Under the pieces are notes generated by a model. That model did no database searches, was not told the origin of the DNA, and saw only the letters and a program-made list of their open reading frames with translations. The translations under genes and the position numbers were made by a program. Below, one piece after another: positions 13,950-59,224 of a stretch of DNA of 61,486 nt. Numbering within the stretch: position 1 is the stretch's first letter; each line of letters starts with the position of its first letter. The stretch comes from a virus (taxonomy: Duplodnaviria; Caudoviricetes), in IMG/VR virus record IMGVR_UViG_3300032215_000085, positions 1-61,486 of that record, one strand, 5' to 3'.

Positions 13950-13979
13950 TGTATAAAAACTACCATTTTAGGAGAAATA

Positions 13980-14810
13980 ATGAGTATAGCTAACAACCCT
14001 TTAAAACAGTATTTCCGTCGCCCGGGTATTTACTTAAAGTTACCCAGCGGGGGATTAGGATATGAACCCGGCGTAATAGAATTCCCGGAAACAGGTGATT
14101 TACCTGTTTATCCAATGACAGCAATTGATGAAATCACTAGCAAAACCCCAGACTCACTCTATAACGGAAGTGCAGTGGTAGAAATCATTTCTAGTTGCAT
14201 TCCTGCTATTAAACAACCATGGAAAATTACTTCAATTGATTTAGATGCTATTCTAGTTGCAATCAAAATTGCAACCAATGGCACTGAAATGGATATTGAA
14301 ACTACATGTAATCAATGTGAAGAAACTTCAAAGTTTGGTGTTAATTTGAGCATTGTACTGAATAATTTTAAACCCGGTGACTATGAAAGTGGATTGATAA
14401 TAGACCAATTAAAAATTAAATTTCGCCCACTAAATTATAAATCGTTGTCTGCTAGCAGTATAAAACAGTTTGAAATACAAAAAAGTATTATCTTACTTAA
14501 CAGTATGACTGAAGGACCCGAAAGAGATACAAAATCTACTGAAATATTAAAGACAATTACTGACTCAACTATAGAAATTCTTGTTGATACAATTGATTGT
14601 ATTATTACTCCGGAATCAATCGTAAATGATAGAGCATTTATTATAGAATTCATAATGAATACCGATAAGAAAACATTTGAAGCTATCAGAGACCATAGTG
14701 TAAAATTACGTGAGAGCACTCAAACACAACCTTTACACATAACATGCACACATTGCAATAATGAGTACGACCAGCCCTTTACATTGAATATAAGCGATTT
14801 TTTCGCTTAA
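13980..14810 (+). CDS. gp26: Baseplate hub assembly protein, gp26-like
   Basis: IYLKLPS, DLDAILVAIKIAT, two CxxC pairs, C-terminal SDFFA. Confidence 0.75.
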   Translation: MSIANNPLKQYFRRPGIYLKLPSGGLGYEPGVIEFPETGDLPVYPMTAIDEITSKTPDSLYNGSAVVEIISSCIPAIKQPWKITSIDLDAILVAIKIATNGTEMDIETTCNQCEETSKFGVNLSIVLNNFKPGDYESGLIIDQLKIKFRPLNYKSLSASSIKQFEIQKSIILLNSMTEGPERDTKSTEILKTITDSTIEILVDTIDCIITPESIVNDRAFIIEFIMNTDKKTFEAIRDHSVKLRESTQTQPLHITCTHCNNEYDQPFTLNISDFFA

Positions 14811-14857
14811 GGCTTCTATACCTTGACCCCGAAGGTATCGGGAAGCTGATAGATGGT

Positions 14858-15034
14858 ATGGATAGGGATATAAAGGCTATTAAGAAGAACTCTGCACGTA
14901 TAGCCTGGTATATGCGCGGAGCTTTAACCTATGAAGATGTCCTTAACCTTAGTCCAGACGAATTAAAATCAGTTAATGAAATCATAGAAGAAAACTTAGA
15001 GACTACTAAGAAAACACAAATGCCGTTCTTCTAA
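14858..15034 (+). CDS. Small gp51-like hub assembly protein (58 aa, not in ORF track); possibly made as a -1 frameshift fusion to gp26
   Basis: MDRDIKAIKKNSARIAWYMRGALTYEDVLNLSPDELKSVNEIIEENLETTKKTQMPFF; frame is open back to the slippery site at 14798. Confidence 0.7.
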   Translation: MDRDIKAIKKNSARIAWYMRGALTYEDVLNLSPDELKSVNEIIEENLETTKKTQMPFF

Positions 15035-15184
15035 TCCATGGTGTTTCATTTGATATACTAACGGTTATTATTGTAGTCATTCATTGGGAGATGAACGCAG
15101 TTCATCTAAGTACTCGCTATCGCTCGTCCTTAATTGTTTTACGGTCTCTTAGTTTAATTAATTGTAATTTGTTTATTTGTATTT

Positions 15185-15552
15185 AGGACTATATTGCCGC
15201 TTTGAAGCCATGGTAGTGCTATTCAGCACTACCAATGGTAAAGGTATGTTTGCCATGCCCGTCGTCCATAGTCATCTATTCCCCGAATAATCAACTCTTT
15301 TCTGTTATTATTCGCCACCGGTTGCTCTGTAGGGTTTTTGGGACTGTAGTTGAAGCTATTAGGTTCTGCCTAATTCTTCAGCAACGCATGTTACATATTC
15401 GCAAGATAAAGTAAAATATGTACTCATTGAAGGTTCGCTTTGACGAGAGCCTTCTCGGTGTTCCATGTTATTGCTAACATGCATACTCCAGAATCCAACG
15501 GCACAGCACAATCTGTACAGTCTCAAGGAGGACTTGCAACCAAGCCTACGAA
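15185..15552 (-). ncRNA. Candidate large structured non-coding RNA, family unknown
   Basis: No ORF in track; more GC-rich than flanks; at least six hairpins, including CATGTTA-GCAA-TAACATG and TGGTAGTGCT-GAAT-AGCACTACCA. Confidence 0.55.
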
Positions 15553-15555
15553 TTT

Positions 15556-16122
15556 TTAAATGTTAATAGTAAGTGTGGACTTTGTGTCTGTATTTTCAAT
15601 TGACTTTGTGTCTGCTGAATATGTTTGTACTAATTTGGTATTGTGTTTAAAGAATAAATCAAATTCCATGATGTACCAATCACCGTACTTTTCGCTTCCG
15701 TAAAAGAAAAAAGTATCAGTGATCCATGTTAGCTTGCATTGCACAGCAACATAACGACCCTTACGATTAAACTTCATAAACAGAATGTTTAAATCGTCTG
15801 GATCGGCTACATCAAGTAGTTGTTCTAACCAAGAATCCAATATTTTGTGTTCACCTGATAATAATAAGTGAAAGGGAAAATCAGCGTAAAACTTGCATTC
15901 TACGTTCATCTTCGGAAAGCTTTGTCCGGGCACAATATCACCCTTAAAGCTACGAATCTGACCTTCATGTAGAATCTGTGTTCTAGATTGATTCTTGCCA
16001 CCAACGTAAGCACCGGAACCAGGGGCACGAATAAAGCTTTCACTATATTTTTCGCTTAGATATTTTGCGATTTCTCGCTCAAACCCTGATCCTTTGTTCT
16101 TACTCGGTGATGGCATAGACAT
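15556..16122 (-). CDS. Holliday junction resolvase, Hjc-like PD-(D/E)XK nuclease
   Basis: KNKGSGFEREIA, KGDIV, VECKFY; adjacent to gp46/47. Confidence 0.75.
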   Translation of the reverse strand: MSMPSPSKNKGSGFEREIAKYLSEKYSESFIRAPGSGAYVGGKNQSRTQILHEGQIRSFKGDIVPGQSFPKMNVECKFYADFPFHLLLSGEHKILDSWLEQLLDVADPDDLNILFMKFNRKGRYVAVQCKLTWITDTFFFYGSEKYGDWYIMEFDLFFKHNTKLVQTYSADTKSIENTDTKSTLTINI

Positions 16123-16152
16123 ATACTTATCTCTTGTGTGCAACTTTCAAAA

Positions 16153-18225
16153 TTATTCTACGTCTACTGCTGTACTATATGTGGTAAAGCCATTTTCTTT
16201 CACGACTTTCAATACGCTAGGAACTCGTCCGGCTAATTCTTCACGATGACTAACAAGCCAAATAGACTTATGTCGTCTACGTGACATGTCCTTAAGAATA
16301 GCAATAGCGTTTTCAACACCCATTGTGTCTAGCCCACTGTCAATCAATTCGTCAATAAACAATGTATTGATTGGTGCATATAAGTTCTCCCAAACATCAC
16401 GAAAAGCAAAACTCAAGCCTAGAATCAACCGATTACGTTCACCACGACTTAAATTGTCAAAGTCAAGTTCACGGCCCAACTCAGTAATTTCAACTGTTAA
16501 ATCATTTTGAAATACTACTTGATGTGGTAATCCAATCTTATCTAAGTAATGTGTTAATCTGCTATTCAAGTATGACAGATTTTGGTCAATGATTTTCTTA
16601 CGTACAAAACTATCTTTGCTAGTTAAAATATCTAACAAAAACTTTTGATGTTCCATAGTCTTAGTTAGTTTATTGATTGCTTCAAAATCAATTGCTTGCA
16701 ACGCATTACTTTCCATCTCTGTAACCTGTTCAGCATATGGATCAGACTCAGCAGCCTTAGTTTCAATTTGCTGTAACAACCCTGATACTTTGCTACGATG
16801 TTCAATCGCTTGTGCTTCTGTATCATAATGCGTAACTGGCATAGGACCCACTTCAACTGATGTAAGTTCTGCTAGTTGTTCACTATATGGATCAACTTCT
16901 TTTTCTTTCTCAAGTATCTTTGTGCGAATGTTTTCTGCATCACTACCATGACGAATTGCTTCTGCTTCTGTCTTGTAATGTGTCTTAGGCTTATCTCCCA
17001 ATACAATGTCTTTATCGTTTAATTCTTTTAATTGATTCAACAGTGTAGTAACATGAAATTGTGCATCTTCTAGCATCTTTTCTTTATCTGCTAGAACCTT
17101 AGCGTGTTGTTCGTCATGGAAATCTTGACCGCAAGCATAACATTGATGTGCTAACAACTTTATAATTTCAACATTTAATTTCTCAATTAACTTGTTTTCT
17201 TTATCAATGTCCTTATTGATTCGTGCAACTTCTTTGTCTCTGTCTGCAATTTCTTTTGACTTGTTATTATACTCAACCAAGGCACGATGTGCTAAGATTT
17301 CTTGTACGATATCTATTCTGGTTAGTTTTTCTGCTTGATTTAATAAGTCAGTAACATCTTTATCTTGCTTTTGCTTCCAAGCAGTTTGTCTAGCCAATAA
17401 TGCATTATATGTATCTTGTTGTTTCTTCTTTTGATTCCAGATTACTAACTCTTTATGTGCTAGTAATTCACTATCAATATCAATTTGTGACAGTTCATCA
17501 TATTGTGCAACTAAGTATGCTAAGTCATTTTCATGTTTCTTTTGCCAAAGCCCTTGTCTGCGCTTTAAACTTTCTATTTGTTCTTTGACACGCTTATTGG
17601 CTTCTTCAACTGCTTTGACTTTGAATTCTTCGCTTTGTATTCCATCTTTAGTTTCTTTCAACAATATTTTTATTGTTTCAGCTTTTTCAGATAATAATGT
17701 GATACCCAATAACTGTTCAATGATTTCACGTTGTTCGTTATTTTTTAATGCTAAGAATGGTTCTGAATATGTATTCAATGCTACGATATGACGAAACATG
17801 CTACTAGACATACACAATACTTTTTCAATTGCTACTTGTGTTTCTTTGTTCTCACCCTGTGCATCGTCCGTACCTTTTTGTAAATCATTATTTACATAAA
17901 ATCGTAATAGATTTGGCTTACGACCACGCTCAATCTTATAGTCAATACCACCCACACTAAACTCAAGTGTAACTAGCATACCCTTTCCATTTGTACGATT
18001 AACTAAATTATCTTTTCTGATTGAGTTAATGGGTACACCGAACAATGCATAGCTCAGACCTTGAATAAGACTAGTCTTACCTGTACCATTACGAGCACCG
18101 TCACCACCTAAGTCTAAGTTCTCACCTAGAATAAGTGTTAAGTCTTGTCGGTTAAAGTCAACTGCTTGTGTGACTTGACCAATTGATAGAAAGTTTCGTA
18201 ATGTAATGTTCTTTAATAATATCAT
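16153..18225 (-). CDS. gp46: Recombination endonuclease ATPase subunit (gp46/SbcC/Rad50)
   Basis: Walker A NGTGKTS, Zn hook CYAC, signature LSRGE, Walker B LFIDE, LVSH. Confidence 0.95.
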   Translation of the reverse strand: MILLKNITLRNFLSIGQVTQAVDFNRQDLTLILGENLDLGGDGARNGTGKTSLIQGLSYALFGVPINSIRKDNLVNRTNGKGMLVTLEFSVGGIDYKIERGRKPNLLRFYVNNDLQKGTDDAQGENKETQVAIEKVLCMSSSMFRHIVALNTYSEPFLALKNNEQREIIEQLLGITLLSEKAETIKILLKETKDGIQSEEFKVKAVEEANKRVKEQIESLKRRQGLWQKKHENDLAYLVAQYDELSQIDIDSELLAHKELVIWNQKKKQQDTYNALLARQTAWKQKQDKDVTDLLNQAEKLTRIDIVQEILAHRALVEYNNKSKEIADRDKEVARINKDIDKENKLIEKLNVEIIKLLAHQCYACGQDFHDEQHAKVLADKEKMLEDAQFHVTTLLNQLKELNDKDIVLGDKPKTHYKTEAEAIRHGSDAENIRTKILEKEKEVDPYSEQLAELTSVEVGPMPVTHYDTEAQAIEHRSKVSGLLQQIETKAAESDPYAEQVTEMESNALQAIDFEAINKLTKTMEHQKFLLDILTSKDSFVRKKIIDQNLSYLNSRLTHYLDKIGLPHQVVFQNDLTVEITELGRELDFDNLSRGERNRLILGLSFAFRDVWENLYAPINTLFIDELIDSGLDTMGVENAIAILKDMSRRRHKSIWLVSHREELAGRVPSVLKVVKENGFTTYSTAVDVE

Positions 18226-18443
18226 TTTAATTTTCTAAAAAAACTGTCTTTGGCTAATTTCTCAGCCTTCACTGTTCGTTCTATTATGCCTTCTAATTTT
18301 AGTTTAACTGAAATCAAACTTTTTTGTTCTCTTAAACTACCTATATAGGAATGAGTATGAGTTAATTCAGATAAAGCAATACCCAGATGTTTGTTTACTT
18401 TAATTAATGATTCTAATTCTCTAACTTCTCTGGGTATCTTCAT
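18222..18443 (-). CDS. Hypothetical protein (73 aa) between gp47 and gp46
   Basis: 4-nt start/stop overlaps with both neighbours (translational coupling). Confidence 0.6.
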   Translation of the reverse strand: MKIPREVRELESLIKVNKHLGIALSELTHTHSYIGSLREQKSLISVKLKLEGIIERTVKAEKLAKDSFFRKLK

Positions 18444-19453
18444 AGGTTATTGTAAATCTCTAATAGGATTCGTTTGTCAAATGTGTTTGATTCAATGCTG
18501 TTAATCTGGTCGATGACAATCTGGTCTACACTTTCAAACTTAAGACCATCAAATCCTTGATTTTCTTTTTGTTCGACCTTCATAGGTATCAATGTCATCT
18601 CACGTAGTTTGTGTTCTGGTATCATGGTTTCACGTATAAAGTTTGCTTCTTCATAGCTAATATCAATGTCAAGATGTACTCTAACATGACTGTCAATTAA
18701 TAGCAACCCTTCAGGGTTTTCTAAGATATCACTAAGTTTATGTACTCTAAATATGGGCTGTCTTGGCCAACTATGAAAGACTGGTTCAACTCCCCATTCC
18801 AATATCATCATGCCACGTGCATCATCACCTGCATCAGCATAGTTATGTGGGAAAGCATTACCGATATACCAAATGTTTTTCTTTGCTTGTCGTTTATGAA
18901 AATGCCCACTGAATACTTTATCAAAGCCAGTAAAATGTTCACTACTAATTTCACCGTGATCGGGCATCTCTACCATAGCATTCATGTAAAAACTTGGTAA
19001 TTCAAAATGACCGAACATATATTTACCAGATAACTTTTGAACTTTCTTATAGTCATCTTGTACAAGCCAAGGTGCAATAACAACATCACCTTGACTAAAC
19101 CAATCATTAACGATTGTCACGTTAGGTAAATGTCGAGCCCATTCAACTGAATGAATGTCTCGCTTGTCTCTATAATAAAGGTCATGATTGCCGGGTATAA
19201 AGAATACTTGGTCAAATGAAGCACTTAATTTCTCAAGTGCTTGTAGACCAAAGGTCAATGTGTGAATATTAATACTAGCACGGTGATGATTGTAATCACC
19301 TAAAAAGAAACAGGTTTCACAACCCTCTTCTTTTGCTTTTTTAATAAACCAGTCTACGAAATTAGCACAGTCTTGATTGTGCTGTAAACTGTTGCTCTTA
19401 AGTCCAAAATGAATGTCAGTAAAAACTGCGGCTTTTTTAAAAAGGTTAGTCAT
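18440..19453 (-). CDS. gp47: Recombination endonuclease nuclease subunit (gp47/SbcD/Mre11); start probably ATG 19453
   Basis: Metallophosphoesterase motifs TDIHFG, LGD, GNHD, GHFH. Confidence 0.92.
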   Translation of the reverse strand: MTNLFKKAAVFTDIHFGLKSNSLQHNQDCANFVDWFIKKAKEEGCETCFFLGDYNHHRASINIHTLTFGLQALEKLSASFDQVFFIPGNHDLYYRDKRDIHSVEWARHLPNVTIVNDWFSQGDVVIAPWLVQDDYKKVQKLSGKYMFGHFELPSFYMNAMVEMPDHGEISSEHFTGFDKVFSGHFHKRQAKKNIWYIGNAFPHNYADAGDDARGMMILEWGVEPVFHSWPRQPIFRVHKLSDILENPEGLLLIDSHVRVHLDIDISYEEANFIRETMIPEHKLREMTLIPMKVEQKENQGFDGLKFESVDQIVIDQINSIESNTFDKRILLEIYNNL

Positions 19454-19459
19454 TCGTAT

Positions 19460-19489
19460 ATTATATAGGAAACGGAGGTGCAAAAGCAA
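19460..19489 (-). promoter_or_regulatory. Sigma70-type promoter TTGCTT-18-TATAAT for gp47
   Basis: -35 at 19484-19489, -10 at 19460-19465, ATG 6 nt downstream. Confidence 0.55.
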
Positions 19490-47680: not shown

Positions 47681-48297
47681 TGTCAATTCAAAACGTGTTA
47701 AAAATTGAAGGATTTGTCAAACTGACAGACCCTAATACGGGTGAAGTCTTACTAGATAAGAAGAATGCTATCCATTATGAGAACATTTCGCAAGCTATTG
47801 CAGATGCACTTAGCAATCGTGGCTATGGTGGAATCTATAAAATGGCGTTTGGTAATGGTGGAACCAGTGTTGATGACACCGGTATTATTACATATTTGCC
47901 ACCAAATACAGTGGGTATTAATGCTAGTTTGTACAATCAGACTTACGCTAAGATTGTAGATGATACTAGTATTTTAAATACTGACCCTTCAAGAAATAAA
48001 ATGATTATCAGTCACGTTACTGGTAAAGTTTATACCGACATTATCGTGCAGTGTTTACTAGACTTTGGTGAACCCAACGGACAAACAGCGTTTGATAATG
48101 GTACTCAGACAGAATCATTGTACACCTTTGACGAAATGGGTATTTTAGCTGGATATGGAATGGATTCGTCTGGTAATGAGCAGACAAGATTATTAACTCA
48201 TGTGATTTTTCACCCCGTTCAAAAAAGTTTGAACAGACAAATTCAATTGGACTACACAATCAGGATTCAAAGCTTGACAAACGTAGTGACAATTTAA
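47680..48297 (+). CDS. Baseplate/tail-fibre attachment-like structural protein
   Basis: MAFGNGG, FDEMG, HVIFHPVQKS, YTIRI; late operon context. Confidence 0.55.
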   Translation: MSIQNVLKIEGFVKLTDPNTGEVLLDKKNAIHYENISQAIADALSNRGYGGIYKMAFGNGGTSVDDTGIITYLPPNTVGINASLYNQTYAKIVDDTSILNTDPSRNKMIISHVTGKVYTDIIVQCLLDFGEPNGQTAFDNGTQTESLYTFDEMGILAGYGMDSSGNEQTRLLTHVIFHPVQKSLNRQIQLDYTIRIQSLTNVVTI

Positions 48298-58443: not shown

Positions 58444-58449
58444 GTTTTT

Positions 58450-58551
58450 ATGTTTGAAAATTGGCATTGGGTTTATATGTGGGGCATATTAGTTGTAGTT
58501 AACTATATGTTCTGGATAGTAAAAAGTCTTTTTGACAACGTGAAAGAGTAA
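58450..58551 (+). CDS. 33-aa single-TM small protein (not in track)
   Basis: MFENWHWVYMWGILVVVNYMFWIVKSLFDNVKE; fills the gap up to the tmRNA. Confidence 0.45.
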   Translation: MFENWHWVYMWGILVVVNYMFWIVKSLFDNVKE

Positions 58552-58618
58552 GTTATTGCTGTATGAAGCAAAGAGAAATGTGTTCTGGACGGGGGTGCGA
58601 ATCCCCCCAGGTCCACCA
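58552..58618 (+). ncRNA. ssrA: Permuted tmRNA, acceptor piece (3' part; 5' boundary approximate)
   Basis: TGTTCTGGAC, T-arm GGGGG-TGCGAAT-CCCCC, acceptor strand CAGGTCC-A-CCA ending at 58618. Confidence 0.9.
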
Positions 58619-58629
58619 TAAGGAAGTTT

Positions 58630-58818
58630 GTGAAAAGTAAAAGTAAGTTCAGTCGTTATAATCTTAAAGGCAACATTATGTGGTGCCTAAATTTGCGTAA
58701 CGGATGGATAAGAATATACAATCATCATATTCGTTGGAATACAGATTGGACGCCAAATTATACATACTTTTTAGTAGAACAGATAAAAGTTTCTTTAATA
58801 AGGAAGTTTTATGAGTAA
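58630..58818 (+). CDS. Small ORF 1 inside the tmRNA intervening segment
   Basis: GTG start after AAGGAAG; 62 aa. Confidence 0.45.
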   Translation: MKSKSKFSRYNLKGNIMWCLNLRNGWIRIYNHHIRWNTDWTPNYTYFLVEQIKVSLIRKFYE

Positions 58819-58993
58819 AGTTTTAAAAGATATTGACCAGCTAATCCTAGATTATGCAGGTCTTCCCGAATATGTATATTCCACTCGTATTTTGGAGGCT
58901 GCTAAATCGGAAATAATTCGGTTGAAAAATTCTGAATCCGAAGCTGAATATTTTAGAACTTTATGCGAAGGGTACGAAAAAACTTCTTTATGA
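58811..58993 (+). CDS. Small ORF 2 inside the tmRNA intervening segment
   Basis: ATG after AAGGAAG; 60 aa, helical-looking; stop lies 1 nt before tmRNA G1. Confidence 0.6.
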   Translation: MSKVLKDIDQLILDYAGLPEYVYSTRILEAAKSEIIRLKNSESEAEYFRTLCEGYEKTSL

Positions 58994-58994
58994 T

Positions 58995-59153
58995 GGGCCT
59001 GCATAGTTTCGACAGGGCAACTAGTAACAGAGTGGACAGCACGGTAGGCGATGACCGTTAATCAAGCAAAAAAAGTAACCGCAAACGACTCACAGTTCGC
59101 ATTAGCAGCCTAAACACTGCTTAGGGTAAGACATACCTCGTAACAGAAAATCA
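58995..59153 (+). ncRNA. ssrA: Permuted tmRNA, coding piece (5' part) with tag ANDSQFALAA* at 59081-59113 (3' boundary approximate)
   Basis: GGGCCTG pairs with CAGGTCC including G3-U; D-loop-like CATAGTTTCGAC; CAGGGCA pairs with TGTTCTG; pk1-like ACGGT/ACCGT stem; resume codon GCA. Confidence 0.92.
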
Positions 59154-59221
59154 GAAAAGGCTCTTTGGAGCCTTTTTCTTTGGCATAATTTTTCTAATAA
59201 ATACTATATTAAATAGGATAA
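59139..59221 (+). repeat. 83-bp direct repeat, copy 1 (tmRNA tail + terminator + late promoter + RBS)
   Basis: Identical to 61404-61486. Confidence 0.95.
59155..59177 (+). terminator. Intrinsic terminator after the tmRNA
   Basis: AAAAGGCTC-TTTG-GAGCCTTTTT. Confidence 0.85.
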
Positions 59222-59224
59222 ATT

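Follow-up and report, generated by a model that had tools for sequence, protein, structure and literature searches.

A conserved structured RNA beside a PDDEXK nuclease gene in a clade of uncultured jumbo phages

Comparison of viral relatives shows that the minus strand at positions 15192-15548 of the window carries what its conservation marks as a non-coding structured RNA, strongly conserved, single-copy and fixed in place. The window is the whole stretch of DNA analysed here, a virus record of 61,486 bases that is rated 18% complete. We put at roughly 70% the probability that this region represents an unclassified family of large folded non-coding RNA, which would be made at the 3′ end of a nuclease operon and would serve as a protein- or ribosome-binding scaffold or as a ribozyme. 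Clean covariation, a single copy, fixed synteny and conservation as good as or better than that of the adjacent genes make it very likely that the RNA is functional. The original prediction of a minus-strand structured RNA immediately following a 'resolvase' (PDDEXK) gene is upheld, at a length of about 360-370 nt, by the covariation and the asymmetry of G-U pairs described below.

The RNA sits inside a 521-nt gap (15035-15555) that separates two convergent transcription units. The gap and its neighbours are laid out as follows.

13980-14810, plus strand: baseplate-hub gene (PF12322, phrog_150)
14858-15034, plus strand: conserved 58-aa ORF after the baseplate-hub gene, convergent with the RNA and downstream of it (tblastn in relatives)
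15192-15548, minus strand: conserved core of the structured RNA, about 357 nt, from blastn, nhmmer and covariation; its 5′ end is at the high coordinate
15556-16143, minus strand: gene for a 195-aa PDDEXK_15 protein or 'RusA-like Holliday junction resolvase' (Pfam PF24608, 4.1e-24; phrog_244, 6e-20)
16153-18225, minus strand: SbcC/gp46-like gene, upstream of the PDDEXK gene
18440-19489, minus strand: SbcD/gp47-like gene, upstream of the SbcC/gp46-like gene

The G+C content is 0.399 in the gap and 0.418 in the core, against 0.349 and 0.352 in the flanking genes and 0.356 in the window, which agrees with the original description of a region more GC-rich than its flanks. That description had also named this the largest gene-free gap, a rank that belongs instead to 781 nt at 58444-59224 around a permuted tmRNA; the 781-nt figure sets aside two short ORFs (62 and 60 aa, 58630-58993, greedy caller) inside the tmRNA match. 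Every one of the six frames over the RNA region contains four or more stops, of two or more kinds. Reassigning a single stop codon would leave every frame closed, and the region is therefore non-coding, as had been proposed. ORFs of 59 and 55 aa do overlap it, but neither has a Pfam or PHROG match, and by eye the alignments of relatives contain indels that are not multiples of three and a stop right after GGAG. We give virtually no credence to a coding gene that a frameshift or an alternative genetic code would conceal.

Elsewhere around this locus, one row of a motif scan placed TATAAAAACT at 13952-13961 on the plus strand, roughly 20 nt ahead of the start codon of the baseplate-hub gene, and we take it to resemble the T4 late-promoter box TATAAATA. 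At the start of the window, 1-443 and 720-1095 had no ORF of at least 45 aa in a greedy ORF call; these stretches may be further non-coding sequence, or a gene truncated at the edge of the window.

Relatives were fetched from IMG/VR through the PDDEXK protein, for which 309 of 310 candidate stretches encode a relative. In the best 80 of these 309, the gap sequence was matched by blastn in every locus (80/80, 69-95% identity), and the match runs from the nuclease stop codon for about 370-470 nt. IMG/VR was also scanned with a 16-base motif from an invariant hairpin of the RNA, which gave at least 120 viral loci; among the matches listed, the whole RNA was present in 114 of 120 (nhmmer). The same motif in 185,579 prokaryote genomes led to the RNA in none of 120 loci among the matches listed; by our own arithmetic those 596 Gb of prokaryote DNA should contain about 800 matches to a 16-base pattern by chance. 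One copy of the RNA is present in each of five large related records (5/5), of which two, at 352 and 360 kb, are rated complete. As far as the collections examined show, the RNA is confined to an uncultured clade of jumbo phages whose genomes measure about 350 kb. Relatives of the RNA-bearing phages turn up in freshwater RNA libraries.

Synteny was counted in the viral loci selected by the motif, a set free of bias from neighbouring genes. In all 87 loci with room for it, the PDDEXK gene lies just upstream of the RNA on the same strand, and the 58-aa ORF follows on the opposite strand in all 101 loci with room (tblastn), at a distance of 71-1048 nt (median 143). The six largest spacings are due to extra genes inserted on the other strand. 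Two relatives have 165-aa ORFs beginning MTIYLYKKTHNITGLKYLGKT between the RNA and the 58-aa ORF, on the strand opposite the RNA; by a sequence motif they are putative GIY-YIG homing endonucleases. Three further relatives have different ORFs of 203-283 aa in the same 3′ flank. All of these were seen in the 1200 nt downstream of the RNA, and this flank is an insertion hot spot. Median identity over the length of the core was 78.8%. Among the flanking sequences it was 66.4% for the PDDEXK gene, 57.3% for the 58-aa ORF and 25.9% for the hub gene, and the last 600 nt of the SbcC gene reached 78.2%.

For the structural analysis, 176 full-length copies were reduced to 87 representatives less than 95% identical. 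RNAalifold on 64 distinct sequences gave 78 pairs, 45 of them with compensatory changes. Mutual-information and stem searches were run on the 64 and then on the 87 representatives, and two pseudoknots were added. In the resulting 77-pair model, 96.3% of 6575 cells across the 87 sequences are standard pairs. When partners were shuffled, 81.6% of cells were paired (0 of 500 shuffles reached the observed value), and when they were slid by 1-3 columns, 31-43% were. Both sides have changed with pairing kept in 55 of the 77 pairs, and the covariation score was 0.439 compared with 0.166 for shuffled and at most 0.088 for slid partners. Compensatory changes thus exceed phylogeny-aware controls, the generic criterion for a structured non-coding RNA. 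Covariation among homologues was the check that the original prediction had named for itself.

Within the helices, G-U cells outnumber A-C cells by 305 to 41, which places the RNA on the minus strand. On the plus strand the helix pairings would therefore break up, and in duplex DNA they would not matter. Folded as a single sequence, the region gave z = -1.84 for the minus strand, a fold matched by 2 of 100 shuffles, and z = -3.68 for the plus strand; such folding is weak evidence for structure and was left out of the choice of strand since thermodynamics favours the wrong one. The same tolerance of G-U and not of A-C bears on a function at the level of DNA, as a replication origin, a packaging site or a set of protein-binding palindromes. 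No covariation is seen in the invariant inverted repeat GGTAGTGC..GCACTACC, which could serve as a dimer-binding site, and the region does lie between convergent operons, but long-range and pseudoknot pairings that covary are not explained by a DNA function, and the wobble asymmetry is the signature of an RNA read from one strand. A DNA-level element is highly improbable. A replication-origin RNA, which had been offered as one identity for the region, found no evidence, the G-U asymmetry pointing to selection on a one-strand RNA.

The fold shown by the comparison of relatives has a domain of hairpins at the 5′ end, a four-way junction formed by Pe, Pc, Pa and Pf, two pseudoknots, a triple-like contact and a hairpin of invariant sequence. 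From 5′ to 3′ the order is H1, P2 enclosing P3, Pd, the Pe/Pc/Pa/Pf junction, Pb, Pinv and a 3′ tail. The elements, with the share of cells paired and the pairs changed on both sides, are these.

15550-15561, minus strand: A-rich motif, consensus ATAAAAATT, at the 5′ edge of the RNA and overlapping the PDDEXK stop codon
15531-15546, minus strand: H1, the 5′ hairpin, GGCUUG/CAAGUC in the window (covariation)
15486-15530, minus strand: P2-P3 domain, CUCC at 15527-15530 with GGAG at 15486-15489, enclosing P3
15513-15518 with 15501-15506, minus strand: P3 hairpin, 91.6% paired, double changes in 5 of 6 pairs
15464-15481, minus strand: Pd hairpin (CATGTTA-GCAA-TAACATG), double changes in 4 of 4 pairs
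15456-15460 with 15316-15320, minus strand: Pe, long-range helix closing the four-way junction (covariation)
15429-15454, minus strand: Pc hairpin, GAAGG/CCUUC and UCG/CGA, 100% and 99.6% paired, 6 of 8 pairs double-changed
15388-15427, minus strand: Pa hairpin (ACATATT/AATATGT, extended), 11 pairs, 10 double-changed, 99.5% paired
15380-15385 with 15321-15326, minus strand: Pf, long-range helix (GTTGC/GCAAC; covariation)
15284-15314, minus strand: Pb hairpin (CGAATAAT/ATTATTCG), 11 pairs, 10 double-changed, 95.2% paired
15404-15409 with 15272-15277, minus strand: pseudoknot PK1, UUAUCU in the Pa loop with AGAUGA, 6 pairs, 5 double-changed, 97.1% paired
15341-15343 with 15280-15282, minus strand: pseudoknot PK2, UCC in the joining strand with GGA, 3 of 3 pairs double-changed, 98.8% paired
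15212-15233, minus strand: Pinv, sequence-invariant 8-bp hairpin GGUAGUGC / GCACUACC, source of the motif used to scan the collections
15192-15211, minus strand: conserved 3′ tail AUGGCUUCAAAGCGGCAAU, after Pinv
15089-15133, minus strand: pair of conserved hairpins 3′ of the core, in the space that separates the convergent units; the 64-sequence alignment has some double changes here

The A-rich motif is kept in most alignment rows and is a possible promoter or processing signal. In H1, which covaries cleanly in the 64-sequence alignment, 5 of 6 pairs change on both sides; only 78% of its cells are paired across the 87 sequences because the alignment is gappy there. P2 (invariant CUCC/GGAG) is 100% paired, with three of its four pairs lacking any variation, and the P2-P3 domain holds an invariant anti-Shine-Dalgarno-like CCUCCUUGAG. 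The loop of Pd is of the GNRA type in 49 of 87 representatives, and some relatives have large insertions at Pd. Pe is 99.3% paired and Pf 100%, each with double changes in 3 of 5 pairs; Pf gains an extra pair (columns 301/378, CG 30, UA 27) and encloses a variable hairpin (15351-15379) together with a conserved joining strand, ACUACAGUCC...UACAG. By inspection of the alignment, a hairpin stands at the place of the variable one in most relatives; 64.2% of its cells are paired in the register tested, a value limited by the alignment, and one isolated pair (columns 304-336) covaries. In Pinv, 7 of 8 pairs are identical in 87 of 87 sequences and the eighth is A-U or G-U.

Identity covariation was found at two places. 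The 5′ base of the outer Pe pair follows C15333 (column 371 against 213/388: UU 56, CC 13, AA 6). The isostery of U.A-U and C.G-C major-groove triples gives identity covariation of this kind, and the contact would be triple-like. The unpaired G15258 and G15200, 58 nt apart, also covary in identity (columns 454/522: GG 47, UU 26, CC 2, AA 2), and by eye their state flips between closely similar sequences in the alignment. No third column pairing with both 454 and 522 was found in the 87 sequences. These two nucleotides may form a tertiary contact. A candidate closing helix, UUGAG/UUCAA, is paired in 88.7% of cells with one-sided changes only. Downstream of the core, the double changes at 15089-15133 concern pairs 575-595 and pair 546/562 of the 64-sequence alignment, and read on the plus strand the second hairpin is followed in the consensus by a T-run. 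The two hairpins are likely a bidirectional terminator pair and are perhaps the 3′ end of the RNA.

The six local inverted repeats and two long-range complements from which the RNA was predicted are all present in the sequence. Five of the six hairpins are kept in relatives, one of them, the variable hairpin, by inspection only. Covariation bore out those now called Pd, Pa and Pb, and the long-range GTTGC/GCAAC (now Pf) is likewise kept with covariation. The hairpin TGGTAGTGCT/AGCACTACCA is also kept; it is invariant, so covariation is impossible there. The sixth, CGAGA/TCTCG, gave way to Pc: it is 67.4% paired, and its inner two pairs fail in 72 and 64 of the 87 sequences. The other long-range complement, GACTAT/ATAGTC, was not kept either, with 40.6% of cells paired across the 87 sequences.

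Judged by SbcC DNA and PDDEXK protein, the nearest cultured kin of the window are jumbo phages with 36-46% protein identity: PA5oct-like phages, Salicola phage SCTP-2, Phosso, Atu_ph07 and RsoM2USA. In SCTP-2, PA5oct and Phosso another gene directly follows the PDDEXK homologue. A covariance model of the central domain (84 positions, 18 pairs), which scores the RNA of the window at 99.2 bits, had no credible match in the complete genomes of SCTP-2, PA5oct, Phosso, Atu_ph07 and RsoM2USA (0/5; best 13.6 bits, E 0.79), and the full profile gave nothing below E 7 in the loci of these five phages (nhmmer). Against 50,697 cultured phage records, among which close kin of the window's own genome may be missing, blastn of the gap had no match at 1e-5 and, at E≤5, only chance matches of 26-30 nt in 3 records. 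The RNA is thus absent from cultured phages that do have a PDDEXK homologue. The nuclease can do without it, which argues against a strict functional link between the two.

Unannotated gaps do occur near the PDDEXK homologues of the Ralstonia phage RsoM2USA (3901-5301, 1401 nt), the Sinorhizobium phage Phosso (1990-3003, 1014 nt) and PA5oct (1479-2141, 663 nt); no relative of the RNA was found in these three. The central-domain model also matched the window itself weakly at 47754-47816 on the plus strand (17.2 bits, E 0.035 by a rough calibration), probably by chance.

Traces of expression were sought in public data. Small shares of sampled words from the stretch occurred in 24 public runs, 21 of them recorded as RNA. 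Four runs from four studies with freshwater or aquatic labels all contained contigs 80-99% like the locus. In each of the four (4/4), 15253-15570 is covered by contigs from relatives, and pieces also span the nuclease genes. The 5′ part of the RNA is joined to the PDDEXK gene of a relative in one RNA-library contig of 637 nt; since such contigs show no strand, ends or level and DNA carry-over is possible, this is a hint only. Co-transcription of the RNA with the nuclease gene is plausible. The plus-strand baseplate genes at about 14300-15200 had no contig cover in the four runs, and contigs cannot rank expression. A promoter test with WATAAAAATT (up to one mismatch) gave 64 matches in the window against 58.5 expected, which is no enrichment, and a consensus scan found no sigma-70 sites near the RNA and no terminator-like sites.

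We suggest that the RNA would form the 3′ end of the transcription unit of the gp47-gp46-PDDEXK recombination nucleases, or alternatively would start at the conserved A-rich motif at its 5′ edge; it would end, probably, at the hairpins at 15089-15133 and would then act as a stand-alone folded RNA. Such a position would also suit a cis-acting 3′-UTR element of the same operon that protects the upstream mRNA from 3′ exonucleases, directs its processing or insulates the convergent baseplate operon, with no role in trans. The RNA always abuts the PDDEXK 3′ end on the same strand between convergent units (87/87), a contig of a relative joins it to the gene, and neither the consensus scan nor the A-rich motif count found a separate promoter. 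Simple 3′ protection, however, needs stable hairpins only, whereas here dozens of unpaired nucleotides, two pseudoknots and the triple-like contact are conserved; the RNA core is better conserved than the PDDEXK gene that it would shield (78.8% versus 66.4%), and the PDDEXK homologues of SCTP-2, PA5oct and Phosso do without it. A 3′-UTR stabiliser thus accounts for the position and not for the architecture, and we regard it as rather unlikely.

For the stand-alone RNA, the mechanism that we prefer is a specific protein- or ribosome-binding scaffold or decoy. Many unpaired nucleotides of the RNA are invariant and so are the sequences of the helices P2 and Pinv, which suggests specific contacts with a partner or an active site. 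From these patterns of conservation we infer that a scaffold or decoy would be favoured over a ribozyme; a new ribozyme is the main alternative within the preferred explanation, possible but doubtful.

The window also carries, at 58557-59113 on the plus strand, a permuted (two-piece) tmRNA (RF04321, 109.7 bits against a cut-off of 47) that ARAGORN did not call. RF04321 is above its cut-off in 4 of 5 large related viral records as well, and the phage clade therefore carries its own tmRNA. Giant phages with a tmRNA are known for interfering with translation and RNA metabolism in their hosts. The RNA could, as a possible if doubtful further step, be the founding member of a new class of large RNA of freshwater jumbo phages of about 350 kb, either a ribozyme or an RNA subunit or cofactor of a phage protein. 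One candidate partner is the always-adjacent PDDEXK nuclease. Another is the translation apparatus, given the invariant anti-Shine-Dalgarno-like CCUCCUU paired to GGAG and the phage's own tmRNA. To our knowledge, large RNAs with ribozyme-grade architecture are rare, and each of the classes RNase P, group I and II introns, tmRNA, GOLLD, ROOL and OLE has proved informative. A partner or activity of the RNA could reveal a new phage strategy or RNA catalyst. Its size of about 360 nt is good for cryo-EM; no cultured phage among those searched carries it, so work must begin in vitro or from metatranscriptomes.

Rfam 15 (4227 families) was scanned for known relatives. At gathering level the whole window gave a single match, the permuted tmRNA, and none on the RNA. 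At E≤10 over 14800-15900 there were two sub-threshold matches, both outside the core, and at E≤5 eight diverse relatives gave four weak matches, none in the RNA. The original prediction could assign no known family, and this still holds with Rfam 15. GOLLD, ROOL, OLE, HEARO and raiA had no covariance-model match in the window or the eight relatives. An identity as tmRNA was set aside: ARAGORN reported nothing in the window and the Rfam tmRNA lies far from the RNA.

The complexity of the fold is of ribozyme grade, and GGAAUACCG ... ACAGAGCAACCGGUA presumably recalls, as a short motif likeness, the P4 strands of RNase P. Membership of a known large ribozyme family, as a divergent group I intron or RNase P RNA, is nevertheless very unlikely, as the Rfam ribozyme models gave no score in either the window (E≤10) or the eight relatives (E≤5). 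The group I model (RF00028) was without a match, and the RNA lies between the stop codons of two convergent genes with no exon context. The predicted resemblance to the P7/S element of group I introns fell with GACTAT/ATAGTC, the P7-like pairing, which is not kept; there is no interrupted exon, and the supported helix order differs from the P3/P7 topology that defines the group I core. The bacterial, archaeal and nuclear RNase P models likewise gave no score in the window or the eight relatives; with a helix order that also differs from theirs, the RNA was not filed as RNase P RNA.

The literature searched does not describe this RNA. More than 10,000 candidate structured RNAs from IMG/VR are listed by Fremin et al. 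2023 (PMC10690425), some of them 'upstream of RusA' and 'upstream of resolvase genes'. The main text of that paper names no such motif, and a listing in its supplementary tables is possible. The family, or at least a partial motif of it, may already be among those candidates without a name.

Several known systems invite comparison. Like RNase P RNA, the RNA has a long-range helix flanked by conserved purine-rich strands, one or more GNRA hairpins and invariant junction nucleotides, at a similar size. It differs in having no terminal P1-type helix shown, in helix order and in the lack of a covariance-model match; the 3′ strand of P4 lies near the 3′ end of RNase P RNA, whereas here about 125 nt still follow Pe. 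With group I introns it shares a pseudoknotted fold of a few hundred nt, a GNRA loop and a T4-like gene neighbourhood, but it is intergenic and without exons, no model matches it and its P7-like pairing is not conserved. The omega-RNAs of TnpB and IscB are guide RNAs abutting a nuclease gene, and they too are structured RNAs of a few hundred nt whose fixed place is the end of a small nuclease gene, on the strand of that gene. The RNA described here differs in that it has no unpaired hypervariable guide-like end, its variable parts being base-paired hairpins, and in its nuclease, which is PDDEXK resolvase-like, with homologues in cultured phages that lack the RNA, rather than RuvC/HNH. GOLLD and ROOL are larger, roughly 580 and 800 nt against about 360 nt, and adjoin tRNA genes, whereas ARAGORN found 0 tRNA genes in the window. 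Their Rfam models match the RNA neither in sequence nor in structure, and here the synteny with a nuclease gene is fixed. GOLLD and ROOL are reported to form multimeric cages (bioRxiv 10.1101/2024.12.08.627333). What it has in common with GOLLD and ROOL is that of a large, pseudoknotted and conserved non-coding RNA, carried by phages, standing alone rather than as a 5′ leader, and found by comparative genomics.
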